Below, piece by piece: positions 12,098 to 43,000 of a stretch of 64,000 nt of DNA. Source of the DNA: Tubiluchus corallicola (taxonomy: Eukaryota; Animalia; Priapulida); the NCBI GenBank assembly GCA_030141605.1, contig JAQGDQ010000044.1, forward strand, positions 496,001-560,000, given 5' to 3'. Position numbers and translations under genes: made by a program. The notes beneath the pieces are model-generated. The model was not told the DNA's origin. It saw only the letters and a program-made list of their open reading frames with translations, and did no database searches. Every line of letters starts with the position of its first letter. Within the stretch, counting starts at the first letter, position 1.

Positions 12098-13525
12098 TTA
12101 GAGATGATGTGCGTACATTTCTCCATGAATGATATATTTTGCATTTCGAAATGTCACAAAGTTTTTAGTAGCGTTTTCGATTATCTGTCCTGGTAGAGAT
12201 TGCAGTTCCTTGGGAAAAGGTGGCAAATCTCCTACTTTCGTCAACTGTTCAATAAACGCAATGGGCCCGAATTCCTCCGACATAAAATGATGTGTTTCTC
12301 TTCCCCTAAACCACTCACATTTTTTTCTTTCAACGAGTTCAGCTTCTGTATCAGCGTTCATTTCCTCTTCAGTGGGCAACTCTAAAGTTCCGTCTAGGAT
12401 TTTCAAAGCAAGAGGAACCTGCCAACATGCCATTGAAGTTAGAGGACAAACAGGTAAACCAATAAACATTATGTTAGGATGTTTTGTACATACTGTATGT
12501 TTGAAAAGAGGTGACACTTTAAAATCTTCTACTGTTATTCCACAATCCGGGTGCAAGAAAGGGTATGAGTACTTGTATCCCGTGCAAAAAAGAATGGAAT
12601 CTGCTGTAATAGATTCACCATCAGTTAGTTTAATACTAGATTTCTCAACTGAAGCAAGCGTTGATGATGCAACCATAAAGTTTGTCGGCAAGATTCCGTT
12701 TGCTTGTTGTTTCCTAAAATTGAAGAAGTCCCGATCAGACGCACATACCGTTATGGTAGTAACTTCACACAGTTCAAGACCAATGTCAAACGCTGATGGA
12801 CCTCCGCCTACAATAACTACATGTTTATTTGCAAATGATGGTGCACAACGGTATTGACAACTGTGTAAAATTTGTCCTTCAAATTCGTGTAGACCATCTA
12901 TTTTCGGAATATAAGGATCTATAAAAGCGCCTGTGCAAATTAGAACCGAATCAAAACAAAATTCTTCAATGGTTTTATCTCGAACGTTCTCTACTGTTAT
13001 TAATAATTTTGGAAACTTTTCTTTTAGCGTGACTGGCCTTATCATTTTGACTGCTGTGTTGGTTCTGATGTACTGGCGAATGTTGTACTGATTCGTAAGG
13101 CTTTGTAGATATTCGAAAAATCTTTGATGAGGAACAAATTCATGTTTATCTGCATCTGAAGGCCACGGCTGTCCTGCCAAACACATAAGAGCAATTGGAA
13201 AATTTGTTACTAAATTTCTATACACTGCACTATGTATTCTATGTCCTTGCTCATCTAGTTTTGTGTTGTCTGTGTACAGCCAAGTTCCACCTACAATAAA
13301 AAATAAATCCTTTATTGTAACTCATTTATTATCCTCTGTCCTCATTTATTAAAACAAACTAATTTTTAAACATAATGCTGTGACGCTAAGCCACTTACCA
13401 ACATCGGAGTTTCTTTCAAACACTACATGATCAAAATCCTTTCGTTCAGATAGAATCTGGGATGCAACAAGCCCAGATGCACCAGCACCAATAACTGCAA
13501 CTTTTTTCTTTTTTGGGTGACTCAT
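12098..13525 (-). CDS. FMO: Flavin-containing monooxygenase (class B, soluble; senecionine N-oxygenase/FMO GS-OX-like), 439 aa, 2 exons
   Basis: Exons 13525-13399 and 13290-12098 (GT-AG, 1320 nt in total). Motifs: FAD site VIGAGASG, VGGTW, YRNLVTN, FMO fingerprint FEGQILHSCQY, NADPH site VGGGPSA, FCTGY. No C-terminal TM. Confidence 0.93.
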
Positions 13526-19875: not shown

Positions 19876-22800
19876 ATGGGAAATAATAGAGAAGATGTGG
19901 AAAGCAACTTGGGCGGCGTGACGCCAGTATCATCTCAGGGTGGCGATGAGAACAAAGATAGAGGAAATTGGTCGGGGAACTTCGATTTCTTTCTCAGTTG
20001 TGTTGGTTATGCTGTGGGTATCGGAAACGTGTGGCGATTTCCTTACCTTTGCTACAAAAACGGAGGAGGTAACTTTGGGAAAAATTGTGTAAACTAATTA
20101 CCAAAACATTGTTGTAAGCAAGGCAACTTCAACGCCATTATTATCTCTGTGTAAATGAAGTGTCGGTCGGGGGAATTTAGCGGAGTGGTTTGTAAATACA
20201 ATTATACCTCAGCCATCAGCCTAAACTTGACTCTAGTATGTTACTAATCTCAGTAATTAAATCTTGATGGTTTGTTTCGTTGCAGGTGCGTTTCTTGTGC
20301 CGTATTTGCTGGCACTGGTTTTTTGCGGCTTGCCGCTGTTTTTCATGGAAGTTGCTCTGGGCCAGTTTTCTAGTTGTGGGGCAATTGAGGTGTGGAAGAT
20401 GAGTCCAATTCTTCAAGGTATGACAGAAGAATTACATACTTCTATCATAGAAGATCTAGTAGACAGATCTAAGTGTTGCTAAGAACAAGATCCTCTGGGA
20501 ACAGTGAAAAAGATTAAACAAAATGGTTAACAACTTTAATAGGTGGGGCATCTTTCATTGTCATTAATGGAATTTATTGTTGACCTTTATTCTTTACCAT
20601 TTGCTGAATTTTTTATATGAAAGTTTTAACTCGTAGGGCAACCATATTTTGCCCTGTTTGTAGAAAAGCTAGCATTTTGATTACTTAATGTGATGCATTT
20701 CATGTAAATCTCCGCTGTTAATACTGAATAATTTCCTCTAGTAAAAGTAATTATGCCAGTAAAAATGAATTTCCTGTAGTTTTTTCCTGTAAAGCACAAG
20801 AAAACCCTCCACCTACATAAAGCTTGAAAAGTTCGTCTTGAAATTTTATATCGCTTACCGTTTTATACTACTGCCTTTTTAAATACAGGGACTGCGCCGG
20901 CAGTAACGCTGTATAAAACATGTAAATTTAAAATCCCGCTCTGACGGTTATACGCAGCCATTTTGACGATAAATCATATGAAACAAGTTTAGATAACGCT
21001 GAGTAAAGTTTGAAAAAATAATCAAAGCATTCGTAACGCACATGTCGCTAAGCTAAGTAAAATTTTAAATAACTGCATCTTGCGAATAAGATTAAAAATA
21101 CATTTTTTCGGTTTGTGAGTGGGGCACCCTGGAGTGACCCTGAACGACATTTAACATATGGTGTAAAAATTTTAGGTAATTAATCATTTTCTTTTCTAGT
21201 CACATAATTCTTTCAAGCAGGTAAACGAAATGCAAAGTAAAGTAACATTAGGCCTAATGTGAAGGCTTTTAGGTTATTTTATTACTTCAGTGTTCTTTCA
21301 TTCTGTAAACCCCCCTATACTGTCCTTTTTAACTGCATTCATGTATGTATGTCTTGACTTGGCTTCTTTCTGTCATGCTCTACTGACAGAGCTAGTTTAC
21401 CTGGTTAGTTGGCAGTCTGTTCTTGGCTAAGAGAGTTGTTGTTGTTGTTTTGTCTCAGTTAAACCATTTATTTGTCAAGAGTAGTAGAGCCATGATGTAA
21501 GTTTATTTTGATTGTTCAGTCTGACTTTATTATTAATTTTCTTGTTTCTTTTTGGGCTCAAATTAGTTTGTTATATTTTGTTATGATTTTTTTACAGATA
21601 AAACGTAATAAAGCTACTCAAACATGAATTTTTTGACTTTGGGCATCATGAAGTAGTAGTCTCTCACAGTTTTATATCCTTCTACCATTCTTGTTGGGAA
21701 AACTACAGGACAGGAGGAGGTTTGCTGAATACAAAGTCAGACATGGACAGCAATGATGACTGCATTTGTTATACAGGACAAACTGTACAGCCTACAAGCC
21801 TGGTGTTGATGAGACAGTGACATTGAAAATTTGCAATACCTGGTTTGAGTTCTGCGACCTAGATTCAGCAGTAACTGGTTTATTTGACTAGTATAAATTT
21901 TCACAGCTTGTTTATAATGGCAGAGCCTAAATTTCATGAACTGGCTGAAAAGCAATACACAGAAGAAGAACTGAAAACAAAAACCAGAGAACAATTAAAA
22001 GAAATACTTCGTCAGAAAGGCTTAGCAGTTGGTGGAATTAAAGCTGAACTAGTGGAGAGAATTATTGCTCATCGTGTGCCAGCAGTGGACAGCCCACCCC
22101 CACAGGTAGTTTCAAGGCCGAAGCTACAGTCAGCCACATGCAGCAGCTACATGCTACAGGTAGCATGGGGGAGCAACACACCACAAGCACTCGGTCAAGA
22201 ATTTCCAAAAGTGGTTACTCGAGTTTTAAAACTGGTGGGAAGCTTTCCGAGAATTCTCGCAAGCTCAAGGACAATAAATTAAAGATTCAGCAGTGTGAAT
22301 TAAAACTGCAAGCACTAAAAGTGAAGCAAAAGCGGCTTGAAAATGAGAGTAATTTGGGAAGTGATATTCATAAACTGACTGCAAGCCAGAAATGTTTTAA
22401 AGTTAAATTTGACGAAGTTCCAAGTAAAGCTAAAGTGACAGAATGGTTTAAGAAGTCTTCAGTGTGTGATAGAATATCAGTAGACGAGGCTTATGTTACG
22501 TTAGCAACCAACGATCAGTATGCAACAGCTGCTTTGGTACTTGCCAATTCATTGAAGCAGACTGGCACACAACGACAGTTGGTGATCATGATATCTGCTG
22601 ACGTGTCTGACCAGGTGAAGGGTCTTCTTCAAAAGACTTTTGATCAGGTGGAGACGTTTGACATCATTGACAGTTTGGATCATGAAAATCTAAGTGCATT
22701 GGGACGACCTGAGCTGGGTGTGAGTTTCACGAAACTGCATTGCTGGAAACTTACACAGTTTAGTAAATGTGTTTTCCTTGATGCTGACACTTTGGTTATG

Positions 22801-25800
22801 GCAAACATAGATGATTTATTTCAGAGGCAGGAATTATCCGCAGCTCCTGATGTTGGCTGGCCGGACTTATTCAATTCTGGTGTTTTCGTGTTTAAGCCGG
22901 ATGTGACAACATATGAACAGTTACTAACATTTGCTTGTCAAAATGGTAGCTTTGATGGAGGTGATCAGGGACTGCTGGATATGTTTTTTCCATAAATGGG
23001 CAGGCGATTTCGACAAACGTCTTCCATATACTTACAATATGGTCAATGTTGATGATGATGCAAGATATGGTTACGTTCCTGCAATGCGCCAGTTTGAAAG
23101 AGATGTCAAGGTAGTACACTTTATTGGTCAGCAGAAGCCTTGGATGAATATGGATGTGCTGCGTTGCCATGAAGCATCGCATTTTTCTCGTTATGTAGAT
23201 GTTTGGAGACAAATATATCGGACACGTGTACAACCACTCATGCATGATTTTGGAATATTTCAGACATGAAAATCGCTCTGAAAATATGCCTCCCAGTAGA
23301 CAGATGAGAAACTCGAGTGCAATGGCTCCACATTTTATTCCACATCGTGCATCTCCAATGAACGGCAACAATATTCATATGGAGGGTTCTACTTCCAGAT
23401 TTGCTAATATTATGGATGAAACGTCCACATCACACAATCCTGACCTCAGTGCTATGATCAACTTTATGATGGAAGGTCAAAGACAGCAGAATAGTATCTA
23501 CCAGACACTACATTTGCCTAAAGTAGAAGTTGAAGTTTTTGATGGCAATCCATTACATTACTGGCGTTTTATGAGAAGACTAGAGGCTAGCATAGAGTGT
23601 TATACTACAGATGAGTCTGCAAGGTTTAGTCGGCTACTATAGTTGTGCACAGGTAGGGCTAAGCAAGTCATTGAAAGGTGCAACTATATGGAACCACACA
23701 CTGCATATGCCCATGCTAAGCGATTGTTGGCAGAACGCTTTGGCCAGCCCTACATCATAACACAAGCCTGGGTAAACAAAGTAAAAGAGTTTGGAAGCAT
23801 TATGCCTAGTGAACCAGAGAAATTACGTGACTTTTCTGATCTGCTAAATAGTTGTATAGAGACACTATGGTCAATGAATAGTCTCGGGGAGCTTAACACT
23901 CAAGCAAACATCTTGGACGTGATCAAAAAGCTACCATACAAATATCAAAGCAGATGGCAGACTAAGGTTACTCAAACTGCAAGGTTAGAATATAGGAACC
24001 CAGACATGTTTGATGTAAAGAACTTTGTTCAAGACGTTTCTGAAGAGATGTCTCATCCTGTGTATGGCTGCTTGTCTGATGCTCGAAAGGTCAGTAAGCG
24101 AGGGAGGCAGCGATAATGCCAAAGATTACAAAAGCAAAAAGGATCCTGTAAAGAGTTTTGTCAGCTATTCAAGTTCTTCAGTTGTAACTCCAAGTAAAGC
24201 GAAGAGACCTGACCAGCACTTTCAAAGACATGTCTAATGTGTAAGGAAAATCACCATCTCAGAGCTTGTGAAAAATTCAGGAAAATGACAGATGATGCTC
24301 GTCTCCAATACGTCAAGGAAAAACATCTTTGTTTCAATTGTCTAAATCCTGGCAGACATAGAGCAGCACAGTGTCGAAGACAAGGATGCAATCAAGCCAA
24401 TTGCAAAAGAAGGCATTCTGGCTTACTCCATGCAGCATTGGAAAGTTGGTTGCCATCAGATGCAAACAAGCAAAAGGGCACACAAACCAGTGAGGCAATG
24501 GAAGCTGATGCCACAGTATGTGCATCATCTGCACTTTCTATGAAGGAAAAATTGTTTTGCCAGTTGTCGCTGTAACTGTTACATCTGAAGGCAGCACAAA
24601 GTCCATATCTACTTATGCTTTTCTGGATGGGGGAAGCAATCATTCATTTTGCTGTAAAAGACTTTTGAAGACTACATCAGTTGAGGAAATTTCTCTTACA
24701 GTAAGAGGCAACAACAGTGGAGAGGCCAAAGAAGCCATTAAACTGAATACAGTTTATGCAATAGATGCCTTTCCAAGCCTCACAGAGAGTATCGTTAAAA
24801 AGACTGATTTGTCCACTTTAGATCATCTCAGTGACCTCTCATTTCCTGATGTAGACTTTAACTGCATCATGCTTCTCATTGGACAGAATGTACCGGTTGC
24901 CTTGGCACCTCTTGAAGTGAGACTTGGTTCTTCGCCAATGGATCCTTATGCCATCAGAACTGCACTCGGATGGACTCTAAATCGGCCCATAGGGGGCGGC
25001 AGCCAATCACTATGCTACATAGCCAATTACGCTCACGTTGACATAAACAATGATCACATACTGTCAACACAGGTTGAAAAATTTTGGAGATTGGAGAGAT
25101 GCATCAATGACGATGATGAAACTGTAACTCACTCAAAACAAGACAAGCGTGCACTAAAAATCTGGGAAAATAGTATAGTAAAAACTGCTGATAACCATTA
25201 TCAATTAGCCATTCCCTTTAAGGAGCACGATCCAAATTTTGAGGATAATCGACCAATGGCTGAATCCAGACTATCAAGTTTGAAGATCAGGCTTTCTAAA
25301 CATCCAGAACTGCACAAAAAGTATTCAGCAGAAATCTCCAATCTGTTAACTTGTGGATATGCTGAAGAAGTTGATGAAGATTCAGGCATCATGGGGAAGA
25401 TATGGTATATCCCTCATTTCCCAGTTTTTAATGTCAACAAGCCTGATAAAACTCGCATTGTTTTTGACTGCAGGGCCAAGTTTAATGGAGTCTCACTTAA
25501 CGATGTTGTCTTGCAAGGTCCTGACTTGACTAGCAAGCTCATAGGAGTTCTTATACGCTTTCATCTGGAGGACGTCGCTGTCATGGCAGATATTAAAGCC
25601 ATGTTTACCAGGTCCGTGTCAGGCCACTGAGATTCTTATATTGGAGAGACGGAAATCTGGAAGACACTGTAAAAGTTTATCGGATGACAGTTCATCTCTT
25701 TGGAGGTGTATGGTCTCCCAGTATTTCTTCTTTTGCCCTTGGACGCACAGCCACTGACAACGAAGACAAGTACGACAAGGAAATAACCCAGGCTGTTGAA

Positions 25801-27984
25801 CGGAACTTTTACATCGATGATTTTTTAAAGTCGGTTGATACTGTGGAAGCTGCTTGTAACTTAGTTCATCAAATGACTTCACTATTAGCTGAAGGTGGTT
25901 TCAACCTTACCGAATGGCTGAGCAACAAGAAAGAAGTCTTGGAAAGCATACCAGCAGAGAAACGTGGAAAATCGGTCAAAACCTTGGATTTGCATTACGA
26001 CAATTTACCTAGAGAGAGAGTCTTAGGAGTCGAGTGGGACATGCACAGAGACGTTTTTTATGTCAAAATCAAGCTCAAGCAGAAACCCTACACTAGAAGA
26101 CGAATGTTGAGCATTTTATGCTCGGTGTATGATCAACTGGGCTTCTTATCTCCCTATGTTGTTAGAGGAAAACTTCTCTTTCAGGAAGCCACTGTGCTTC
26201 ACAGGAAGTCTTGGAATGATGAATTGGACAGTGGTATCCAAGAAAGATGGCAGCGTATACAATGGAAAGTGACTTCTTAATTAATGCTATCCAAAGATTT
26301 GTTTGTCGAAGAGGCAAACCCAAGATGCTGCGATCTGATTGTGGCACTATTTTAACTGGAGCAGATCGTGAAATGAAGAGATCGATCGAGCAGTGGAACA
26401 ATGAGGACATTTCCAAGGCATTTCAAAAAAAGGGAATCGAATGGCGATTTAATGCTCCTCAGTCTCCACACAGTGTAGGAGTTTGGGAGCGCCTGATAAA
26501 GAGCGTAAAACGAACACTTACCTTTATCATGGACAAGCACACCATAGATGATGAAGCATTACATACATATTTTTGTCAGGTTGAGAATTTCCTGAATACT
26601 CGTCCGATTTCTGTAGTTTCAGATGACATTCGCGATTGCGAACCTCTGACTCCTAATCACTTGCTGTTGCTGCGCAATGGTCCTACTCTACCACCTGGAA
26701 AATTCACCGACTGTGATGTGTACTCAAGAAGATGGCGCCACATTCAACATATGGCCAACATATTTCGGCAAAGGTGGAAGAAGGAATATATAGTTATGCT
26801 CCAGCAAAGGTCTAAATGGAACAGAGCCAAGAAAAACCTCCAAGCAGGCCGATGGAACAGAGCCAAGAAAAACATCCAAGCAGGTGACATCGGCCTAATT
26901 AAAGATATCCAGACTCTGCGAAGCAGCTGGGCTCTGGGCAGAGTAATAGTAGCCAGTCCGGAAGAAGATGGTTTGGTGCGGTTTGCAACATTGAAGACAG
27001 CTTCTGGCATTCTAAGACGACATATTAATCAATTATGTTTAATTGAAGGACACATGTAATTTCTGTTGTAAACTCAATTTGGTAAATGCTCTTGTAATTA
27101 AAGTCGCATTTAAGGGGGCGGTGTGAAGGATTTTAGGTTATTTTATTACTTCAGTGTTCTTTCATTCTGTAAACCCCCTTATACTGTCCTTTTTAACTGC
27201 ATTCATGTACGTATGTCCTGACTTAGCTTCTTTCTGTCATGCTCTCCTGACAGAGCTAGTTTACCTGGTTAGTTGGCAGTCTGTTCTTGGCTAAGAGAGT
27301 TGTTGTTGTTGTTTTGTCTCAGTTAAACCATTTATTTGTCAAGAGTAGTAGAGCCATGATGTAAGTTTATTTTGATTGTTCAGTCTGACTTTATTATTAA
27401 TTTTCTTGTTTCTTTTTGGGCTCAAATTAGTTTGTTATATTTTGTTATGATTTTTTTACAGATAAAACGTAATAAAGCTACTCAAACATGAATTTTTTGA
27501 CTTTGGGCATCATGAAGTAGTAGTCTCTCACAGTAACATTAGGCCTAATATAATTTTAGGCCGAGACTAGCAGATTCACTGGCAAAATTATTGTAATATT
27601 GGTTCTCTGCATACTACAATCTACAAACTGCATGATAATTTACGAGGGCATCACCCTTCTGAACGTCACAAACTAATTTAAAGATTTAACGAAATTGAAT
27701 TTAAAAACCTATCAATATTTTCTGTTCTATTAAATTTGCGTTAAGATCCGCTATAAAAATAATCCAAAAAATCTAAAGTGTATTAATTTTGAACCAGACA
27801 CTGAATCTTATATGGCAAAAAGAATGCATGGAGTGTACTAAAAAATCAAGTAGTATCCACAAGAAGGGGAACGGCAGTCTCACATCAGATTAAAAAGTTG
27901 CATGGGCAGAAAGGTTGAAAACTACTGTATTGCGAACTGTTACACAATATAAGGTTAACATTTGTTCTCATTAGGTCTGTCTTC

Positions 27985-28018
<34 letters not shown>

Positions 28019-31000
28019 GGTGTTATTCAGGTGTGGTTTGTATATGGTTCAAAAAACATAATTTAGTTGTTGGAAAAATCTGTTTTCATAATTAAATGTG
28101 ATTACACTTGTGGGGCATCAAAATGTTATTTATTCCCAGAGGGGTTTTGAAAGGAATGATAATCACTGGTTTACAAAAGCATTTGTCCGCATTCCTGAGG
28201 ATTTGTTGGGTCGAAATTTTCCATTTTGAAGTTCGAAAATTTCCATTAGGTTAAAAACATTTTGCAGCCAACGTTTTACTGACGTTGCTATGATTATATT
28301 GCATTTTAACATTTAATGTTACGCAGTTAACTTGTTCTTTGACTTCGTCTAGATTACTGAGATTTATTATAGGCCTAGAAAAAAGTTTGTTTCCGTTTGC
28401 CGACAGACCATTTGACGTGCGACTCTATTTTTTTTGTTTATCAAAGGAATTTCTTGCCCACGCAAACTTGTAATTTGATACCCCAGTAGCAGTCAGATCA
28501 ATTGCAGTCCCAACTGCAGCCTGAACAGTTGTCTTAGAATTAATGAAACTCTCTGACAATGATTGCAAAGTGCAGACGTGAGTCATTATTTAGGCCAATT
28601 AGGTAAAAAAACTCAGTAAACTGTATTTAAGGAGAAAAATTTAATACTGAATTTATGTAAAAATGAAATCAAATAATTGAAGAAGATTCTGAAAAAAAGC
28701 GAGTTCAATCAGTATTCAACCAATATGTTGTGGTATCAGACCATGGTTAAAGTAAATGTAAGACAAAAGTGCGTTTGGGAGTCTGTATTGCCATACCGGA
28801 AGCGACTAACAAAAAGAACTTGTTAAGAGGCATAAGAAAGTGCCTCAACTGTGCAATTCAAAAAACTCCATAGTTTACCAGTATACTGCAGCATGTTTAC
28901 CTAATGCAATTTCATTTTGTAAGTCAGTACTTGCAATGAAAAATGTTTTAAAAGTAAAAAAATGAGGTAGAAAAACAAAATAATTAAAAAATGAAATTTT
29001 TCATAATGTTAACAGCTTATTATTTTGTACTGTGGCAGCAGTTAGCCAAGCCACACTTAATGTTATTCATACACTGTGATATGGTGATGAGAGTGACCAC
29101 AATGAGTGGGGTGGGGTGGTGTTACTACAGATACACGTTTATATTTATCTTTTGTTAATTAGTTAGAAACGAATTATTATTTTTTACAAATTACCATTAA
29201 AGCAAAAACCAAGTCTTTTGGGAAGTTGACCCACTGGGGTCACCGAAAGGACATCAACAGGGAATGTCTCAATCATAGCGAGTAATATATCAAATTAAAG
29301 CTTGGGGTGAAGCGGCTTTGACATTAACAAATGTTGGCCCACCTTGGGTCACCTAAAGGGCATTTTCAGGAAATGTGCCAAACATATTGTGTAATATATC
29401 AAATTAAAGCTTATTGAGACGCGGTTTGACGTGGTTCATTAAAACGTCAAGCGTCGTTCACAAATGACTTAATATTCTTTATTTGGCCAAAACCTTTTCC
29501 TCGTCGTCTTACATTTTTGATGTGTAGTAACCTTTGCGTAAAAAGCATGTCAAACTGAATGACCAAGGTCGAAAATTTTGGGCAATTTGTGGTCACTCAC
29601 AGGGCATCTAAAGAAGATGTTGCAAACAATTGTGTAATAATTATAGGGTACTTTAAGCTTGGAAACTCAGTACTAGAATCATAACTTTAATGATCTGTTT
29701 AAATGTATTTATGAAGATGCCAAATGCAAAGTTAATAGGAAGACAATAGAGAGCACAGCAGGATGTAACAATTCAGGGCATTATAATTAGTTGCCGATGT
29801 AAAGGCTCTATCAGAGTTTTTCTCACACTAACGCATTTGCATACTAGTAAGATGTCATCGCAATGTGATAACATATGACCCCCAATAAGCCAATTGAGCT
29901 TTTGTGCTTGAGCAATCATTCTAGCACAAGTCATACAAGTTTTTTGTGGTTATTGCAAATTTTTCTTCATGGGACCTACACCGTCATTGACGGTCTGGTT
30001 AATTATTTTGAAAACAATTTTTATTTGTCAATACAAAACAAAAGCTGTCAGTTAAAGCATCTCTTGTCACAGAAGCAGAATCTTACCACAGTTTTTGACA
30101 CAGTCAAGAACGTCCACTAGTTAAGTTTCTTTTACGTTTTTAAGCAAAGAATTCTATGTGCATATTTTGTATCGTGATTTCAATATTTTTAATTGTACAT
30201 TAAAATGCAATAAATGTTGTCCGTTCGAGGGTTGGTTCTTCCTTTAATTAATTTTTTTGTGAAAAAGCGGTGGACTCATCAAAATAAGATGTAATTTGGT
30301 TAGAAGATCTGGAAATTTCACACTGACATAGTCATGTGGCAATAAACTAAAATGTGAAGATAAAATTTTTAAAATGTGCCATTCATTATCAAGTATAATT
30401 ATTTTTTATGTTCTTTCAAAGATAAATTCTACACTTTTTTTCTCGTATCTTATTTATAGCACCAAAGATCTTTACTTAATTTGTTAGGTTCAATCTTTGA
30501 AAGTTGAAAAAAATGCAAAAAAGAATATTTATAATTTTTTTATAACATTGTACGTTAATTTAATACAGTGTCAATATTCCTCCAGTCGGAAGCTCTTGAG
30601 CTGCTGGGCATAAAAACTGCTAATTTCCAGAACATAATTAATTTACTTCTCGACAAAGGACTGCTGAATTGAAATGGTAACATAACCTCAACTCATGAAG
30701 ACTGGTGTAGAAAACCTTGTTCATATGTTCAACTGGTTAACTCCATTATTTGATTGTCCCACTCTCACATGTTGTAGGTGCTGGTTATGGAACAGTGGTA
30801 GTGACGAGTATATGCTGCATTTACTATAATGTGCTAATCGCATATATACTATTCTACATGGCCATGTCGTTTGCAAAGACTGTACCCTGGGCGAGCTGTG
30901 ACAACTGGTGGAACACCATCAATTGTGTCCGCAGAGGCGTTGAGGATGTTGGCTTGACACAGCCAAACAGCACGAATGTGTCCACGGATTACATAGCCAA

Positions 31001-34000
31001 TAACACCGCTGCAGATGCTATGATAGTGGCTCGCAATGGTACATCCACGACACCTAGCGAAGAGTTCTGGTAGTAAGTATTGCATTTTATGGCTTACTGT
31101 GTGAGGTGATGACTTCTTCCTAAATCACGATGGCAACTTGGAAATTTATCACAAAAATAAAGAGATTCAGTTAAAAAAATGAAATAAAGGATTCGAACAT
31201 TTGTTTGTTGAAAGTGCAAATAAAGTTAATGAGTATGTTTCTTTCATTCATTTAATAATCTTGCATAATTACATGACTGTACTTCATGGCAATGTTGCTG
31301 CCATCAATTTTTAAATGACCGTAAAATATGTGACCCAGTGGCCGTATGATTGTACTTGTGCCGAATCAGAGGCAATTTTGGAAACAAGTAACTGAACTGT
31401 AGTTTCATTTGCAAAGTAGTAGTAGTCGTAGTAGTAGTAGTAGTAGTGGTAGTAGTAGACAATTTGTTTAGACAATATTCAACATAGAATATTGCGCATG
31501 CAAAATGACAATTTCTCAAGGAGACTGTCACAAAAAACCTGTAAGGTTGCAGACGTGGCAGCGACTGGAAACACAGAATATTCTACAAGAGTTACAAGAG
31601 TGATATAAGAGTTATCATTACGAGAGTTATCATGCTAAGTTACATTAATGTAGTTGGCATACATAGCAACCAGGTAGATTACGTGAGTCACTATAAGAAG
31701 AGAGATAATTGCTCTTTTAATTGTTTAACAATGTAGCTTAAGCCATAATTCTTACTGTTAAACAAATAAAAATTTAATATTACTGGGGAACAGTGTATGT
31801 GAGAGACTGCTCAGCATACTTGGGTGTTTTACAATAATGCATCTGTAACTGTTGTCTTGTGGACAAAGTGGGTGGTAGACTATAATGATTTTCACAATTT
31901 TGCTAAACTGTTTTCGGTTTTTGCTGCTTTGCAAAACAGAGTGTTTTTTTTCTGTTAAGTGCTAGTCGCCTAGCTTGTTCAAGAGTGTCATAGCAGTTTC
32001 TGACTACATTCTCGCTTCATATGAAAATGCGCATTTTCGGTGAGATGTATAAAAACAAAAATTCTAACAATGTATGAGCTCAAAAAATCTGGCGCCCCTC
32101 AAAGGCTGGTGCGCTAGGCATTGCCTAGTTAGCCTATTGGTTAATACGTCCATGCTATTTGGCCGATTTCTTGGGCCCCGCACACACGCTCAAGCCGAGG
32201 ACGCTATAATGAATAACTAATGAGTATCCGCCGTACAAAGTTCTTGATATTATGAATTTAGCGAAACTATTCAGTATAACATCGTATATCTGTGTTTCAA
32301 CGTTCTTTTTACTGATCGTTTGTTTATTTAATTTGTAATTTTAGTTTATCGTCAGTTCAGTACTAAGTTCAGTTTTAAAAAAAGGTAATTAGTAAGCCCT
32401 AATGCATTAGTTGCGCCAAATGTACACCGAGCTTAGCACGTGATTTAGCTTTGTCCTAGGCGCCTAGCGCAGGTTTTCGGGCTAAAGGAAACAGGGTTTG
32501 CGCGGCGCTCGACCACTATTATAGTATGCAGGCGCATTTTCAAGAAAAGTGTTCGTTAAACTGCGACGAACCTACAGAATAACGTTAATCTAGTAGAGAC
32601 GTTTTACTATTAAAATACGTAGAGCGTTTTCAAAAGTGAAACTGATTAGAACTATACCTACGGTAAACAATTTCACAAGACAGACTAAATAATTTGGCAC
32701 TGCTATCTGTAGATAATTACACTGCAAAAATCATTGACATCACTGTGGCTAATGGTGGACCCTCTAGCCCTCAATACTTTTTGGCTGAGACTGGAGTACT
32801 ACACGAAGCAAGTGGCGGCTCGTAGCTAAAATTAGTGGCGGGTACTGCTTCAGAAAATTGTATTCAGGAACGTTACATAACTTCCAAACAGCTATTATCC
32901 CCTTCTTAATGATCCTGGATCCGAGTACCAGTTATCACTTTATTATCTTAGTCACTCTTTCATATACAATATTAATCTCCCTAATTAATATTGATTCTTA
33001 TCTGTCGCATGTGATCGTATAAAACTTGACTTAAGACTGAAGGAGGGGTTCACATCTAGTACATTAATTGCTATAAGGTTATTCACAACCCGGCTACTAG
33101 AGTTTAAGATAAAATCTATAGAGCAATGATTTCTTCTCACAAGATTGTTTCTACGACTCCGCGTTGTGAAAGAGTCTTAATCTCTAAAGCTATCTAGCAA
33201 AAGTTCCCGCAATTGAACTCGTAGAATACTTAATGTACCCAGTAAATCCTTAGATTCGTTTACAGAATTTGATGTTGCTTAACTGAGACACCTCTAAGCA
33301 TACTCGAACTAATCATTTATGATTAAACGAAATCCGTTTATTGTTTACAACAATTACTCTTAGTTTGCTAAATTACAATATATGAACCTAATCGCCAAAG
33401 ACGCTCACAATTTATAATTAGCTCCCAGAGATACTAAACAGTTTCCTTAACTAGTCTTTCACTTCGCACTTAAGGTGCTAATTTACAATGGGAAACATTT
33501 ATTACAATCAACTACACGTCACACTTAAGGTGTCTATTACTGTGATGAAGCTACTATGCAGAGTTGCTCTCAAGTTACGATAGGTTAAGTTCACTTAACA
33601 TGGTGGAATGACCAATGTCAACCGTTCAATTGGTCAATTCCGTTTCCGTTGTGACAATAATTCCTTGCCTTACAATAAATATATGCTTTACCAGCTAAGT
33701 GAGTTCCCATATTTTCTTAATAAATTTATCTGATCCAATTTGGAGGTCTCTTTATCAACATAATCTGATGAAGTTGATAACTTCATTAATTAATCACTTA
33801 ATTCATGATTCCGAAATTTATTCATAACAACTTTCCTCCCCTAAAACTCACTTAGATGTGGCTTATATTTAATGTTTCGCTACAAGGTCGCATCTCTTTG
33901 GAGCTCCTTAATTATACACGAATACTACATAACATGTTACATCCTTAAACTATTATGGGACATTCCGTCATGGAGGTCTTGGTGGCGGGACACCATTATC

Positions 34001-37000
34001 CATTGGTTTCCTTGACCGGGGTTCACGTATTCACTGTTCACGTATGCATTAGTGTCCTGAGTTCCTTCCTCAGCTACTCCCCTTGTGGTCTTTGCCATCT
34101 TCCATCTTCTTCCCGCCTTTTATCTGCAACGGTCCCATTATCCTGTAACATAAATACAATACGCAGTATCCTTGGTGTCATTTAAACATCTACATAGTTA
34201 ATACAACTATTCACATGCATCCCTTTTACCTAATTGAGTGGCTTCTTTACCATCATCCAATGCTACCAGCCTGTTAATTATGTTTGACTCCTACAATTTT
34301 GAATTATGTCTACCCTTAGATACATTCTTAGGCTTTCTCAGCCTTTTCCGGGTTAGTCTTTCGGGCAGATGGTTGAGGTACTTCCTTCAACTCTATCTCC
34401 TCGGGGTCCCCTACACGCTTTTTGGTCCTCTTGACCTTAACCCTGGGCCCTCGGTCGTCCGGATTCCCAGCGGGTGTACGTCCAGTCACCTTATTAGGTT
34501 TTTCGTCATCTGTCGGGTCGGAGTATATCCCGTACCCATTCTAGGTACCAAGGAATTCAAAACTAAAAGGCCACTTCTCCTCTTCCAATAGCACACCACT
34601 CCTACCATCAGAAGGATAGCCGTTATAGCCCCGATCAGGACCCATTTCCTAAAACCCGTCAGCCAGTCTGTGGCTACCGTCTTGCTTAACGCACGTCGTT
34701 GTCGTTTAAGTCGTTCTCCATTCTGTTTAATGGAGGTTTTAAGGTCGTCTAAGGATATGTCAAACTGGTCCCAAGTTTGTGGTACAGGCGGTTTTACATA
34801 TTCAGGGATCATGTCTACCGTGCCAGGAGTTATGTTTTGCAACTCACTCAACTCCTCATAGAACCTCTCAATCACTTCTCTCCTCGGCAACTCAATCTGG
34901 TTCTCTTCTAACCTTATTTGTGAGTTCCAGTAATAATAGGTAGGTAACTCGAAAGTCCTTGAGTGTACCTTACACCCATTCTTCATTACAATTAGTTTAG
35001 GTTCTACAATCCTCTCCTCTGAGGATGCTAATCGATCGGTACCAGGGATTGGGCAAGTATGTGTGATCAGAGTCTCGCCAAAAGGAGACACATACCAAGT
35101 CCCTGCAGTAATATAGGTCACAACTACCTCTGGTTGTTTAATTACCTTCACCCTACGCTCACAGGCTTCTAATATCTCTTCAGGCCTGTTACGAAACAAT
35201 ACGGCTGGACATGCCGTCGCGTAAGCAGTTGACCTTACTGGCACCTTTAGTTGGCACGGTTCTCTACTCTTATCTAGACACAATTCCGTGTCTCTATTCT
35301 CGGGCAAGAAGAACTTAGTCCTCTCTATATTGATACCAAAATATTTCCATCCTGGATTAAGGTAAATATAACCCGTAGAATTCGGCATTACCATAGGCAT
35401 AGGTACGATCTGGAACAAGTCGAACCTATCTTGATCTGGCTGTAGCGATATGAGGGCTAGCACCGCATATCCTCCAACAGTAGCTAATAACGTGACTTCC
35501 ATAGTCTCATAATAATACAGTAAATCTCCTTCCGGCCTTTCCGGCAAGGATAAAGTACTCGGTAACGCCTTCTGTATCTCGTACAGTGTATCTCGCAACT
35601 GTGCAGGTCCCAATAAAAGAGGTGACATCGTGCCTGACAATAAAGTAGACAACATGTCTGTCGTTTTGTGCACATTGTCAGTCAACCTTCACATAGTATG
35701 GGAAATATGCTGCATCAGCGCCATTATTTCTGTTAATGCCACCATCTCATGAGTCATTATCTGTGCGTGGTATGCAAATTCCACCTTAAGTTCCGCTAAA
35801 TTGTATTTTAACTCTGCAGTGTCATTTTGCAACAATATTATATGTTTGGCGTTTTCCTGACTCTGGATGTGTGTATAATTTATTAACGTCACAGACTTTT
35901 CAAGGATGTGCTGCATGGATTCTTGGGAGGCCTGTATCAGATCAAGCTTTCCTGCCAGGGCTTGTAAATCTTCCTCGGTTGCAGTACCTGTTAGGGCTTT
36001 AGAAATTTTCCCTAAGAAAGGAAGCAAGCTACGCCTTGTTCGGCTTCTTCTAGTCCTACCATCCAGGTTCATTCCGGATGAAGGTTCGGGCCTGGACTTA
36101 TTTTCGCTCGAGGATGGTTGACGATCTCCTGCTCTTCTAGACGCCAGGAGGTGCGCTATGTCATTCGTCTTCTGCCTGAGCCAGATAAGTGGAAGCGATA
36201 GTGTTTACTAACACTGTGATGGCTTCCGGGAACCTATCCGCCTGATGCAATGGGGTGTGGGGTTTATCCACACGTTTTGCAGGGTCCCAAGAATGATGCT
36301 TTAAGATAAGCATTTCCTGCTTCAAAGCTTCCAAGCAAAGTTCAACTGGGCTAATGTTTAGCTGCATTAATAGGGCCCATCAGGATTGAGATACTTTTAC
36401 TTCTCCTTTACGGATGAAGATTGCTCCGGGACTGGTCACTACATTGGCTTCACTGATTACCAACATGAGACTCCCGAACATCCACAGCACTATTCTGGAT
36501 TCCATATTCTGAAAAACAGTCCAAAACATCATAGCCTTGGAAAGGTCTGGACTCACTGTACACTTATTTATCATCATTCTCATATCTTATCTATATAGGT
36601 TAGGGGACTTTCCTCCCCCTGGAGTGGCCCTAACCTCTTTCATAAATTAGTAAGTTATTCCGCTCCAGCCTTACTATTTATCCATAGATCTGTTGCGCGT
36701 GCGCGGAAATTTAGTTCTTAACCTAATACGAGGTTAAGTGGATCAAGAGTTCAAAACTAGACTAAACCGCTTGCAAACAACATTGGATCTATTCCATTTT
36801 TATTCCCGCTATAGCGCTTTATAGCTATCAAATTTTACTTCGCATGCATGCCTTTAATTCTTACTGAACAGTCCTACTGTTCCTATTTATATCTCACGCG
36901 CATCACAAATTTACTTCCAGAGTAACGTTCAAGACCTTGGCCTCTAATTACCGCTACTTATGTCTTATGTTAACCACTGTGCACGGCGATTGGCAAACGT

Positions 37001-40000
37001 TACTTATGGTAGTATTTTCCTTTAAACTTTTCGCTTCTATTCTCCTCTTACTCTAATTGTAGGTCGGGTTTTCACTTGTTCGCATCTTCTGTTCGCTTTT
37101 AACATTTCTAACTATATTCTACTCTTATCTCGCGTACTATAAATATTTTCCCATTCTTACTCATTTTCATTCCTTCCTCTTCTTACTTGTTTTACCTAGG
37201 TATTCTTTAGTTATTCCTAATTTTTATTTTATTTTCTTTCAGACCAAGCTTCGACAGTTCTCCCTGTAGCATCATATTAACACAGCGTCCCATGTTAAAC
37301 AGTTGCAACTTAGTTCGTGCTGTTTGTGCTGCCCTCTGTAGCCTAACGTGTTAGTTGGCCATCCAACTCTGCTGACCACGCTTGACCTGTTATTTACCTA
37401 TATAATTATTATTATTCCGCGCGCCAGATGTCTCTAGTGTGTTGCTTAATTCAGTATGCTGCGACCTCGCATACTTTTCACTCACTTTCACTTTCCTTGA
37501 TAAATTATTCATGAGGTCATTATTGCGAACACCCGCGTCCTACTATAACTTTCACTTTCTAAGCCAGCGTGTCCAAACGCTGGTCCAATCCACAGGTTTC
37601 TGAACCTGGGTTGTTTCTCGAGACATATGAAGAACCTTTTCTAGGGGAGGGGGCCCTTCATCTTCATAATCAGACTCTATCGAACTACCTGTCTGTGAGG
37701 TTTCGCTATAGGTCATACTACTTCCGGTTCGTCTCGATTTTGCACTAACTTCAGAGAATTCGCTACCACTATCGATCCTTGTCCATTTGGTTTGGCTAGA
37801 GTGCGCTTCTTCCGGCATTAGCAGGGGTGGCGGCGAACTACTAGAGATCTCTGAAGTATCTTCTTCCCGTATTCCAGGGCGAGTATTCCAGCTGTCTCTT
37901 CTTCCTCGGACAACTCTTCGCCTAGGTCATTTCCTAACCTAACTTCCGGAATTTCCTCACCGTTCTCTCTATCTCTTTCTAAGAACGGGGCGTCAAAGGG
38001 GTCCCATGCCAAACTCTCGGCATTATCTATAGCCTTCTCGCTATCTTCCTTCCCTTGACTTAACGTTACTCCCTGTAACGTAGTTCCTACAGGAGCTGAC
38101 CCTTCTGGGGCTCACCTACTAACATTTTCTCCTACTTGAGAGACTTCGGGTTCAGAAACGCGGGCAACTCTACGCAGAGGTCTGCCTGCTCTATTTTTCT
38201 CTCGAGCTCCTGGTTTAGTTGACCAGGCAGCCGTGGGAGGTACTAATCGCAAATGCGTCACATGGCACGTTCTTACTCGGCCCGTGTCCATGTTCTTTAT
38301 CTTGTACCTATGTTTACCTAACCTTGTCAACACAACATAGTTACTTTCACAATATTGATTTAGTTTTCTTGAAGCTTTTGGCTTCATAGCTTGGTTATAA
38401 TAGAAGACAATATCGCCAGCCCTAAAATGGCGAGTCTGGGCCTTACGGTCATACAACTCCTTACACTTAGCTCTGGCCGCTTCTGTTCTCTTTTTCGCTA
38501 CCACAAAAGCTTGATGCATCGTTTGTAAATAATTCTCAAAATAATCCTCTCCCACATATTTATCCGGCTCTGCCAAATGGTTCTCTATCATCCCTCGGGC
38601 GCACGTGCAAAGAGAAGGTAATAGGGGAAATATCCCGACGTACTGTGTATGGAAGTGCGATAGGCTGCTAAGGCCCTTGGGATCTGTTTGTCCCAATCTA
38701 GGGGATTCTTGTCCGTTAGCTGCCGTAACAAACTCATTAACGTCGCATGTTGACGTTCTTCAATCTCATTTCCGGGAGGGTTATAGGGAGTTATGGTAAT
38801 GTGGCGTATCCCATAATGCTTGGTCAGCCTCTTGGTCATATTGTTGACATATGACCTGTCATTATCAGTGATCAACTTGATGGGGGCCCCATACCTACAA
38901 ATAATCTCATTTACAAAAGCCTCAGTAACTGTTTCGGCCCTTTTATCCGGAATACCCACGGCATTCACCCATTTGGTGGCCAGGTCCGTAAATGAAATTA
39001 TATATTTGTTGCCATTCTCTGTCATAGGTGATGGACCTATGATATCGGTTGCCACCGTTTGATAAGGCACGATTGGAATCGGTGCCTCTTGCATGGGGAA
39101 CCTTACCACATTTCTACTCTTCTTATTACAGACAGGGCGACTTTCTATAAACCTCTTGCAGTCCTGTCTAATGGTGGACCACCAAAATCTAATTATGACT
39201 TTATTAACCGTTTTTGCCAATGCAAAATGTCCACCAGTGAACGAACTGTGTACCTCCCTAATCACTTCATCTATTAAAACCGTCGGTACTACAATTAAAT
39301 AATAATTTCCCTCATTCGTCCCATATTTCTTATTGATTCGGCATAGTAAACCATCGTCATTTATCGCGTAATCTTCTAATAATCTATACGCCTCCTGAGA
39401 CTGTTTAGGACTCGTAATTACATGTGTCAAATGAGAAAGCGTCGCATCTTGACTCTGCAATAAAGCGAACCTTTTCTTATCAACCAACGCGTCCTTTAGT
39501 TTACCATCCGCTGTCAGCTCTGTGACCTCTGACCTGGTCACTTCCAGATTTGGCTCATTGCCATTTTCAGAATTCTCATTAATTCTATTTCTTTTCAGCA
39601 AAGCCTCCTCGCGCAATATAACCTTCCTTTTAGGGAACAAAATCCCTGAAGAATTGGCAGACTGAACCCAGTCAGCATCATTATACTCTAACAAAATAGG
39701 TCTACCATCCGCAGTATTGCTCACAGTAGCGCCCCCTGGGCGTGCTGGGTCCTTAAACGTGCTGCTCTCTGATGGCGAGAGCTATTTTCTCCTATCGCGG
39801 CTACTTGGTACTTAGTATCTCTTTTCTCTAGGCGGCGCCATTTTTCATCTAAATCTCTCTTAGTGAATGGTTTTTTCTCTGTCGCTTCCATTTTACTCAT
39901 AGGCAAACGACTATAGTGGTCGGCTGGATTCTTGCTGCCTGGGCAATATTCAATTTTCGCACTTTGTTGCGACAGTAACAACGCCCAGCGCTCTAACTTA

Positions 40001-43000
40001 GCATTTTTCAATTGCTTACTCTCCAACAGATACTGCAAACTCTTATGGTCGGTTCTAATTATATACCGACTACCATAAATAATGGTGTAATTTTCGGATA
40101 CCGTACACTATCGCATATAATTCGCGTTCTGAAGCTGTCCAACGCAGCTGCGTAGGCGTTAATTGGTGTGAGAAAAACTCCACAGGCCGTTCTACCCCAT
40201 TAATTTCCTGGGTCAATACACCTCCTACACTATACAGACTAGCGTCTGTGTATAGAATATATGGCCTTTCCGTGTCCGGATGAGTAAGTAGTTCCGGATT
40301 TAATAACGCAGCCTTTAATTCCTTAAACGCTTTCTCTTGCGCTTCTCCCCAACTAAACTTAACATTTTTCTTAGTTAATTCAGTCAATGGTCGAGCGATT
40401 TCCGCAAACCTCGGTATATTCGCTCGATAATAATTACAGCTTCCAATAAAACTTCTCACACCTCTCACATTAATTGGTCGGTCCATTGTCTGTACTGCCT
40501 TAGCTCTCTCGGAATCGGGTCTGAGGCCATCTTTACTAATAATATAACCCAAAAACTGCACATCAGGCTTAAAAAACTGGCATTTTGAAGGCTTTAACTT
40601 TAGATTAGCCTCACTTAGCCGTCTAAAAACTTCTTGTAAGTGGTCTAAATGTTCTTCTTGCGTTTTTGAATACACTAGAATATCATCTAGGTACGCTATG
40701 CTGAACTTGTCAGTGATTCCGTCTAATAGTTTATTGATCACGTGCGAAAACACTGATGGACTCGTTAAAAGACCCATGGGGCTACGTGTAAACATATAGG
40801 AACCATCCTGTGTGACGAACGCCGTCTTTGGCTGATCATCTTTATGGACAGGTATTTGCAAGAAACCTTGTCGCAAATCTAAACAACTGAAATATTTGGC
40901 GCCCTGTAGTTTATCGGTGAAGTTGGATAAAGTTCGACTAGGAAAGGCGTCGAACTTTACGCACTTATTAATCCATCAGCCTTTTTAACTAACAAACAGG
41001 GTGACGCCCAAGGACTATTCGCTGGCACCATTATCCTAGCTGCTAATAATTTACGAATAATCTTATTCAGCTCCTTCTCTAAATTATTCGGTACTCAATA
41101 AGGTCTAGAGCGCACTGGCTCAGCATCCCCTGTATCGATCCGCATCTCCGCGAGCTTGGTTTCTCCTAACTCTAAATCTGAACTGGCAAACACCCCTCTC
41201 CATGTTTTTAATAACCTTCCTAATTTAGACCGCCACAAAGGTGATAAATGATCCAATTTAAATTCAACCTCTGTCTTAGTTCCCGAAACCCCGTCATGAT
41301 ACCGCCAATGTCTATATGCGCCCTCGGCATCCGCCGACGAAACGCTTTTTGGAGGGCCATGCAGATGTTTTAATTCCAAAAACACCTTGCCTCCATTATC
41401 ATAATTTACTTCCAAAGGGTAATTACCCATCGCCCCACTGTGAGTTTTACTACCGCGTGCACTGCGGGACACCGCGTTCACCGCTAAACATGACGCACGA
41501 CCTCGAGACCTCTGCAAAACTCCCTTCTTCAGCGCGGGCCTGCAGTGAAGGCTACCATTCACAAACCTTCGCTGACTATTTTCTCTATTAATATCATCCG
41601 AGCCGCCTTGATTAACTTGACTATTCGCGAGCGCTATCGCATATATCTCTCTTTCACTTAATTCCTGCGCGGTGCCGAATATACTGTTCTTCCTAATTCT
41701 TATAGGTCTACTAGAATTGTTCCGTAATAGTAGTGAGCATTTTCGCCTCTCGTTTAACTCAACCAACCCAGCCTCAAATCCAACATCTGGGCGGTTCTTA
41801 AAAGTGGGCGCATTTTCTGCCATTTCTACACATAAAAGTTGACCCGGGGGTCGATCTCTTTGAATTCTAACTCGCAGCACCACTTCGCTTTGACTAGGGA
41901 CGCAAACGTTCTCATCCGCGAGCAGCAAATCTAATTCCTGCTCACTAATTTTCTCTAAAGCAAGTAAATGGGCTCTGTTGCCGATAACTAACAATTTTTG
42001 GCCACAGTCTAACGAAGCACCCATTCGGTGGAGTGCATCTATCCCTAGTATAGCCTGCTGTTTCATTTTTACAATTTGGTATTTAATTCGTATTTTGCTA
42101 TCGCCAAACTTCGTTTCTATAACCTTTGAACCGAGTACCGGCATTGCCATGCCGGTAGCGTCCTTTAAAGTTATTTTACTAACATCATACGGGCCCATAC
42201 CTAATTTTTTATATAACCCTGATGAGATGCACGACGTGGTTGCCCCAGTATCAACAAGCAACCTCGCCGGGCATCCATTCAACTCCACCACACAGGTAGG
42301 TTGGGAAATTATCGATTCCTGCCAACCTGTGGAGCTGTGCGTTCGATACGCACTCACGGTATCCCATTTATCTCTTCCTATACTATTTAACTTTAATCTT
42401 TTTCGGCACCCTTTAAGCGCAGTCCGCCTTTCTCCATTATCATTTCCGCTTTTACAACATTTACACGTACCAATCTTATTTATACTTCTATTCACATTGC
42501 CGCTCATCTCCTCTACACAATCTCGGCTTCTCACGGGGGAGACGACCCGCTGGGAGCCTAGCAGTTTTCCTGCGGCCTTCCACGGCCTATTCTCCCTTGC
42601 ATGACAGGACCCCTGTATCGACACTCCCTAGCAAAGTGTCCCGGTCTCTTACACTTAAAACATATATCCGCCTGCGTGGGCCTTCGTGGGTCCGGGTTCC
42701 ACCTGCCTAACCCTTGACGGCCGAATCCGGCGGGCTGAGACAGCTGCCTAGGTGCTGGCCCTCTGTGGGGAGGATTCCTACCTACCGGATGCTGTTTACC
42801 CTGGCGGTTCTCAGGAACCGTTTTCCTATTCTCAGGGCGACCTTGTCCCGGCCTTTTAGCATCTCCGGGCACCATCAGCTGACATACAGGGCTGTCATCT
42901 TCATTACTCGACTCAGTTGCTATATAATCAACTTCCATAGGCGTATCCATTCTCATCTGGTGAGCGACATGCTGACTCTTCAACCTCGTAATCTCATGGT

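Follow-up and report, generated by a model that had tools for sequence, protein, structure and literature searches.

A BEL/Pao retrotransposon family of Tubiluchus corallicola with a glycogenin-derived catalytic domain inside its Gag

A 64,000-nucleotide stretch of the genome of the priapulid Tubiluchus corallicola (GenBank assembly GCA_030141605.1, contig JAQGDQ010000044.1, positions 496,001 to 560,000 of the forward strand; here called the window and numbered from its first letter) contains a long terminal repeat (LTR) retrotransposon of the BEL/Pao type whose gag gene includes a domain that, judged by its sequence, derives from glycogenin. Pfam domains follow one another along the element in the order SAP, GT8 (two hits, in different frames), DUF1759, Peptidase_A17, integrase core and DUF5641. 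The two glycogenin pieces match the rabbit and human glycogenin-1 structures with E values of 1e-68 and 9e-14 and jointly span residues 2 to about 268, and a single open frame (22048-22995) joins the Gag linker to the glycogenin sequence. The motifs TNDQY (22507), DAD (22780-22788), GGDQG (22957), YGYVP (from 23066) and HF..KPW (23117-23143) are all present. In codon composition the domain could not be told apart from the remaining parts of the element.

The tail of glycogenin, which binds glycogen synthase (PMC12267440; this paper, like PMC9614988, PMC5408684, PMC5131818 and PMC3118150 below, is cited for its available passages), is missing from the element. A profile of 83 glycogenin C-tails reached at best -2.3 bits on the element's six frames, compared with a median of 55 bits on the 229 of 240 natural glycogenins that it matched; a weak likeness of 23380-23420 to the tail, noticed by eye, was rejected by the same search. 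Because the C-terminal synthase-binding domain is absent, we regard the domain as glycogenin-derived and not as a full glycogenin.

The window copy is dead, with at least seven breaks and a deletion of ~1.37 kb in pol near 26256. Three breaks fall within gag-glycogenin (at about 22090-22130, in a T-run near 22984 and near 23250-23270), and further lesions are a stop at 23640 and breaks near 24100-24215, 24550-24575 and 25600. An earlier note, made from the sequence alone, had described the 411-bp LTRs, the order SAP, coiled coil, glycogenin, capsid and zinc knuckles, the reading frame shared with upstream Gag, the restriction to the catalytic domain and frameshifts near 22130, in the T-run at 22984 and at 23250-23270. 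Pfam and reading of the sequence, the open frame, the C-tail profile and the lesions of the window copy bear out this description, and the motif coordinates that it gave were all right.

Table 1 Features of the BEL/Pao element and its flanks (positions in the window)
Feature	Positions	Strand	Details
BEL/Pao element	21258-27532	+	6275 bp in all
Left copy of exact 16-bp flanking duplication	21242-21257	+	contains a 12-bp palindrome together with the next bases
Right copy of 16-bp duplication	27533-27548	+	
5' LTR	21258-21668	+	411 bp, TG..CA, AATAAA at 21607
3' LTR	27122-27532	+	411 bp
Gag start codon and SAP domain	21917-22072	+	ATG at 21917; SAP 21971-22072, PF02037, E 1.7e-8
Ser-rich stretch, coiled coil and Gag linker, upstream of captured domain	22135-22482	+	weak Gag-profile match; open frame into glycogenin
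Captured glycogenin GT8 catalytic domain	22483-23265	+	intronless, without synthase-binding tail; PF01501 in both pieces
Acceptor arm with three-residue acidic insertion before acceptor Tyr (23066-23068)	23036-23080	+	
Remaining Gag linker and capsid region (DUF1759)	23270-24100	+	stop at 23640 in window copy
Three Cys/His knuckles (nucleocapsid)	24231-24431	+	
Protease (LDGGS 24623), reverse transcriptase (YIDD 25810), first third of Peptidase_A17 region	24509-26271	+	broken near 25600
Integrase core (rve) and DUF5641	26256-27059	+	after ~1.37 kb deletion relative to sibling contig X5 record 30
Polypurine tract	27112-27121	+	read from the sequence; directly before 3' LTR

Sibling copies of the element were read from assembled contigs of public runs, of which X1 and X3 come from one sample, possibly the one that the window derives from, and X2 and X5 from other studies. 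One X3 contig (record 18; 22294-23363) spans both gag-glycogenin junctions at a depth of 69.9, as against 9.99 on the unique flank, with 28 other letters and 2 gaps, and the 5' junction is also spanned by X2 record 11 (22088-22828) and X5 record 27 (22441-23080). The earlier note had considered that the junctions might be unspanned and the fusion a misassembly. These contigs contradict it: the 5' junction is crossed in three studies, and one contig crosses the two junctions together. In X1 the depth of the main contigs is 799-1283 over the domain, 1020 over upstream Gag, 1167 over pol and ~195-250 on the unique flank, and in X3 it is 61-80 over the domain and 10 on the flank. The depth of the domain thus equals that of the rest of the element and corresponds to roughly 4-7 copies, a rough figure since depth is not a copy number. 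Among the 24 X1 and 5 X5 records on 22420-23330 there was no sibling without the domain, no joint that skips it and no loose end at the 5' junction. The sole loose end near the 3' end (X5, 23235) continues, by eye, as sequence resembling the last glycogenin codons. A further run, X6, gave no match to the domain, a result that speaks neither for nor against it.

The three breaks between SAP and capsid in the window copy are absent from the higher-depth sibling contigs, so the usual form of the family is likely to be open across the SAP-to-capsid stretch, and the breaks of the window copy may be mutations or assembly errors. SAP and capsid are present on the X5 contigs too, as is a pol that exceeds that of the window copy in length. 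One X5 contig has an ATG at 22480-22482, the codon just before the glycogenin domain, where the window copy and the X1 majority have none; the earlier statement that the glycogenin lacks a start Met of its own therefore holds for the window copy and not for the family as a whole. Taken together, the domain is family-wide and lies in frame between coiled coil and capsid, and is not confined to one copy.

The X5 lineage is ~7-13% diverged from the window copy along the element, which allowed selection on the domain to be estimated as the ratio of nonsynonymous to synonymous divergence (dN/dS). The estimate covers the first 70 of about 260 glycogenin codons, where the X5 difference rows, which run from 22462 to 22692 among the 40 of 75 rows listed, were taken as complete from their position order. 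Over the 70 codons there are 27 differences, distributed 6/2/19 over the three codon positions, and dN/dS is 0.07. The 22 differences found in X5 only give a dN of 0.035, a dS of 0.44 and a ratio of 0.08, so that dN/dS ranges from 0.07 to 0.08 at a dS of about 0.44-0.6. Sixteen of these 22 changes are silent, where 7.0 are expected under the observed transition bias (P 5e-5). In the seven linker codons just upstream of the domain dN/dS is 1.1. Five differences part the window copy from both X1 and X5, four of them silent and one not. Moreover, the domain differs from X5 at 70 of 809 letters (8.7%) and Gag plus Pol at 397 of 3447 (11.5%; P 0.02). These data demonstrate purifying selection on the domain within the element, as shown on 70 codons, and because both lineages share the 5' junction this selection postdates the capture. 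The earlier note had also raised a one-off capture, with neutral decay of a segment absent from other copies; siblings that carry the segment, strong purifying selection and the lack of any near-identical host mRNA seen speak against it. Its view that the glycogenin was retained as a Gag domain, and is not a later processed-pseudogene insertion, is supported by the siblings and by selection.

DUF1759, Peptidase_A17, DUF5641 and three Cys/His knuckles are used as BEL/Pao markers, and the element has all of them. The RNase H region is mostly deleted in the window copy, and the corresponding extra length is present in a sibling contig. Target-site duplications of BEL/Pao elements usually measure 4-6 bp, a figure that the profile of the International Committee on Taxonomy of Viruses (ICTV) does not give, whereas the Tubiluchus element is flanked by an exact duplication of 16 bp; lengths of 4-24 were tested and a match was found at 16 only. 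This is unusually long for an LTR element and was seen at one insertion only, and may represent an aberrant integration or a family trait. The duplication overlaps the palindrome and begins just past the end of a very high-copy interspersed repeat (about 20790-21240) that lies directly upstream of the 5' LTR and has a summed X1 depth of up to 861,000. The two LTRs differ at 6 positions, all of them inside the first 125 of 411 bases (21258-21382 versus 27122-27246; chance about 0.0008, for a region picked post hoc), a clustering that suggests recombination between two templates or gene conversion. LTR-like sequence (21362-21615 and 27204-27457) has a summed X1 depth 20-45 times that of the internal region, probably reflecting many solo LTRs or related families. 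The 411-bp LTRs and 6275-bp length fall within the ranges of Belpaoviridae (LTRs of 0.2-1.2 kb, genomes of 4.2-10 kb; PMC8742986), and the element shares with this family the polypurine tract of ~10 nt and the order gag (capsid, nucleocapsid), then protease, reverse transcriptase, RNase H and integrase. In Belpaoviridae the 5' LTR is followed by an 18-nt primer-binding site for tRNA-Arg or tRNA-Gly (PMC8742986); a reading by eye, made without a host tRNA set for comparison, found no TGG-type start directly after 21668. Primer site apart, the element fits the ICTV description of Belpaoviridae (PMC8742986), from whose members it may differ in this respect and does differ in the 16-bp duplication and in the 260-residue host enzyme domain in Gag.

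The place of the domain within Gag was examined with a profile of the Gag N-terminus built from 60 of the 150 nearest Gag relatives, picked for having 200-420 residues before the capsid piece. The piece before glycogenin matches profile positions 129-199 weakly (E 0.004), and the piece after it matches positions 222-337 (E 5e-22). Ahead of the capsid piece there are 575 residues in the element compared with a median of 279 in those 60 relatives. These lengths and the consecutive profile matches suggest that a domain of ~260 residues was inserted into a low-complexity Gag linker with little loss. The SAP domain is native to the lineage, as it is present in 5 of the 43 Gag relatives scanned with Pfam. 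Not one of the 150 relatives, which were the best of 2372 matches and of which 43 were scanned with Pfam, has a glycogenin domain. The nearest of them among the matches listed are ~42-44% identical, and one is named, from a sea cucumber.

The capture of the domain looks old, because nothing close to identity turned up that could be the host gene: in X1, a deep run searched with a filter that drops some contigs and with 16 pieces outside the rows examined, no long match to a host glycogenin at 80% or above was found, and at 80-90% there were only short stretches round the DAD motif. The best protein matches among those listed are 62-67% identical, and a quick-search tree of 96 rows (the element, 45 named and 50 unnamed glycogenins) left donor and sister group without resolution. 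Since the domain is intronless and the route is known (PMC5131818), we infer that template switching in reverse transcription captured a spliced glycogenin mRNA long ago. Of 226 natural glycogenins, 14 have a Met at the spacing of the X5 ATG before the domain; this ATG may therefore be the start codon of the captured mRNA, which the lineage of the window copy has since lost. Two X1 contigs and one X5 contig, with loose ends at 22732-22814, match round DAD only; beyond it they read, by eye, as glycogenin-like sequence of greater divergence, intronless at that point, and one of the three carries a stop. These may be older glycogenin-bearing elements, retrocopies or the host gene.

To what extent the domain retains the features of an enzyme was assessed at 23 key positions, numbered on mammalian glycogenin-1 (P0139). 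The element keeps 22 of the 23, including T11, Y15, K86, D102-A103-D104, N133, D160, D163, Q164, Y195, Y197, H212 and K218; the equivalent of C131 is a Leu. The sequence is that of a GT-A fold with the DXD, His and Lys ligands of donor and metal. W128, D160 and Y197, which are dimer contacts of glycogenin (PMC12267440), are all kept. The acceptor Tyr is likewise kept, as are its surroundings (Y-x-Y-x-P-A), and the N188-Y195 spacing is 9 in the element and 6 in 234 of 240 natural glycogenins, the other 6 being unmatched. Two sibling contigs, X1 record 7 and X5 record 9, align without a gap at this place, and the insertion in the acceptor arm is therefore family-wide. Given the lengthened arm, self-glucosylation is likely but unproven.

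The reading that we favor is that the element encodes a glucosyltransferase that likely draws on uridine diphosphate (UDP)-glucose and acts on Gag particles, a proposal drawn from sequence comparison to which we assign a probability of roughly 0.5; that the domain is of some use to the element is highly probable. The part N-terminal to the capsid faces outward in related particles. Gag assembly would pair the glycogenin domains into dimers; lying N-terminal to the capsid, these would probably be exposed on the outside of the particle, where the domain may add a short alpha-glucan to its own Tyr or to neighboring Gag. Speculatively, this glucan, extended by or docked to the host glycogen machinery, might make the particles granule-like, and granule-like particles might have better reach or persistence in germ cells or might escape disposal. 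Any benefit to the element, be it transport on glycogen granules or disguise as one, delivery to the germ line or shielding, is speculation. In its wider form, to which we give the same even odds, the proposal is that a host glycogen primer may have been turned into a capsid-associated glycosyltransferase that makes the particle's own glucan independently of the secretory pathway and mimics or rides glycogen granules, or that glucosylates a host defence protein.

Several observations weigh against this proposal. The acceptor arm exceeds by three residues that of every one of the 234 natural glycogenins scored, eight other near-invariant positions are changed compared with a median of 0 in natural glycogenins, and the domain forms the longest branch of the tree (0.78 versus a median of 0.17). 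The key residues were spared no more than other invariant ones (P 0.31), which makes catalysis statistically inseparable from conservation of fold or dimer; this test counted 9 of 92 invariant positions as changed, including F171, whose apparent loss is an artefact of the piece being cut at a break. Retention of the Tyr is also compatible with poor self-glucosylation, as in mimivirus R707 (PMC9614988) and human GYG2 (PMC12267440), and without the tail the domain would recruit host glycogen synthase poorly. Finally, the dN/dS estimate covers 70 of ~260 codons and comes from one X5 contig at a depth of 15.

The family-wide insertion in an otherwise length-invariant acceptor arm might instead be the mark of an active glucosyltransferase that has been re-aimed, its own Tyr being no longer fed while Gag carries the enzyme to another acceptor, such as a restriction or silencing protein of the host, another protein of the element or the element's nucleic acid. 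This would fit the long branch and the eight changed near-invariant positions beside an intact donor site, and glycogenin relatives with other acceptors exist, namely mimivirus R707 (PMC9614988) and the Skp1 galactosyltransferase (structure 6mw5). The equivalents of Y195 and Y197 and the Y-x-Y-x-P-A pattern are nevertheless kept and no candidate target is known, and we consider such re-aiming unlikely. A pure binding module, which dimerises Gag or pairs with host glycogenin and so tethers Gag to glycogen particles while its catalysis is incidental, strikes us as quite unlikely: all listed donor and metal residues have survived 0.78 changes per site, of which such a module would be expected to lose some, even though the dimer contacts are kept (PMC12267440), the tail is lost and conservation of the catalytic residues does not significantly exceed that of the other invariant positions (P 0.31).

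Captures by template switching are common and often in frame (PMC5131818), and the extra enzyme open reading frames of rotifer LTR elements show, in the available passages, no clear departure from neutrality (PMC5408684). The glycogenin domain might on this precedent be a passenger, tolerated because it folds and keeps the frame but of no benefit to the element, which is very unlikely in view of a dN/dS of 0.07-0.08 beside a linker at 1.1, of a divergence below that of Gag plus Pol and of the failure to see a sibling without the domain, although in-frame loss would presumably be easy. Selection could instead act for the host, which would have recruited one or more copies as additional glycogenin genes, the diverged contig from X5 being one of them; its ATG at the first codon of the domain, spaced as in some natural glycogenins, and an X5 copy number that depth does not fix agree with this. 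Co-option by the host is highly improbable all the same, since the X5 contigs also hold SAP, capsid and the longer pol, X1 and X3 show several near-identical copies, four of the five differences that set the window copy apart from both X1 and X5 are silent despite the missing ATG in the window copy and the X1 majority, and the synthase-binding tail that a host primer needs is absent. The chance of an assembly artefact is negligible: the evidence comes from assembled contigs and not from raw or long reads, and no listed contig covers the whole element, but the 5' junction is bridged independently in assemblies of three studies, and a single contig bridges both junctions.

LTR elements that keep captured enzymes are already known (PMC5408684), and what is new here is a glycogenin domain in Gag. 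The rotifer elements with dUTPase, GDSL esterase or DEDDy exonuclease share with the Tubiluchus element the uptake of cellular enzymes, but their enzymes are separate third open reading frames or pol domains, act on lipids or nucleic acids and, in the available passages, do not depart clearly from neutrality within the genome (PMC5408684), whereas the Tubiluchus domain is a sugar transferase in Gag with dN/dS <0.1. LTR-mediated retrocopies (Tan et al. 2016, PMC5131818) likewise consist of intronless host coding sequence in an LTR element, in sense and in frame, and likely arise by the same route; they are young and flanked by discontinuous element pieces, whereas the domain described here is old and family-wide, in a family that retains a complete pol. 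Mimivirus R707 is a virus-borne glycogenin-type UDP-glucose transferase and has been proposed to glycosylate viral proteins (PMC9614988), but it is free-standing, 26% identical to glycogenin-1, encoded by a giant DNA virus and, in the same passages, without self-glucosylation; the element domain is 60%+ identical and fused to a capsid precursor. With glycogenin-1 itself (GYG1; CAZy GT8; PDB 1ll2, 3t7m) the domain shares about 62-67% identity over the first 170 residues, the listed catalytic residues, the acceptor Tyr and the dimer contacts, and differs in being internal to Gag, in lacking the synthase tail, in its arm of three additional residues and in its long branch.

Searches for other Gag-glycogenin fusions covered the listed rows, so that more distant, lower-ranked fusions could escape. 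None was found in the best 120 of 668 long glycogenin matches (551-2000 amino acids, a range that excludes Gag-Pol proteins of more than 2000) or in the best 120 of 2319 near-length matches, and eight non-glycogenin pieces of the element gave 0 matches against those 240 glycogenins. Three metagenome glycogenin loci showed no Gag or Pol match above chance, there were 0 viral contigs, and the ESM Atlas returned only GT8 clusters, with scores of at most 0.80. In the papers listed by literature searches, with subscription papers, supplements, Repbase and Dfam outside the coverage, no glycogenin or glycosyltransferase in Gag was found, and the available passages of the BEL/Pao superfamily scheme (PMC3118150) give nothing on extra Gag domains.

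The element sits between two host SLC6 (sodium:neurotransmitter symporter) exons on the same strand (PF00209, about 19960-20076 and 30771-30983). Elsewhere in the window, a second LTR element, of the Ty3/gypsy type, occupies about 32889-45660 on the minus strand, with Gag knuckle, protease, reverse transcriptase, RNase H and integrase, and also has an envelope gene matching baculovirus F (PF12259) that is split by a stop. Perfect terminal inverted repeats of 374 bp, 1164 bp apart, mark 341-2252 as a young non-autonomous DNA transposon. A flavin monooxygenase lies almost wholly in one open frame at 12098-13321 on the minus strand (best match 48%, best named match 35%), identities that point to a thinly sampled host lineage, and a tandem array with a 35-bp unit is found at 47931-48895.

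Host sequences captured by LTR elements are mostly short-lived passengers, and where retention of an enzyme is known, its substrates are nucleic acids or membranes. The Tubiluchus element, by contrast, keeps in its Gag a metabolic enzyme that transfers sugar, under constraint at least as strong as that on the element's own genes. This hints that the BEL/Pao life cycle, poorly understood as it is, includes a step not yet known, such as particle glycosylation or the use of glycogen granules. The domain also offers material for studying priming, as a glycogenin from nature whose acceptor arm is altered and whose synthase tail is missing. If the proposed glucosyltransferase activity on Gag particles is true, it would connect retroelement replication directly with glycogen metabolism.

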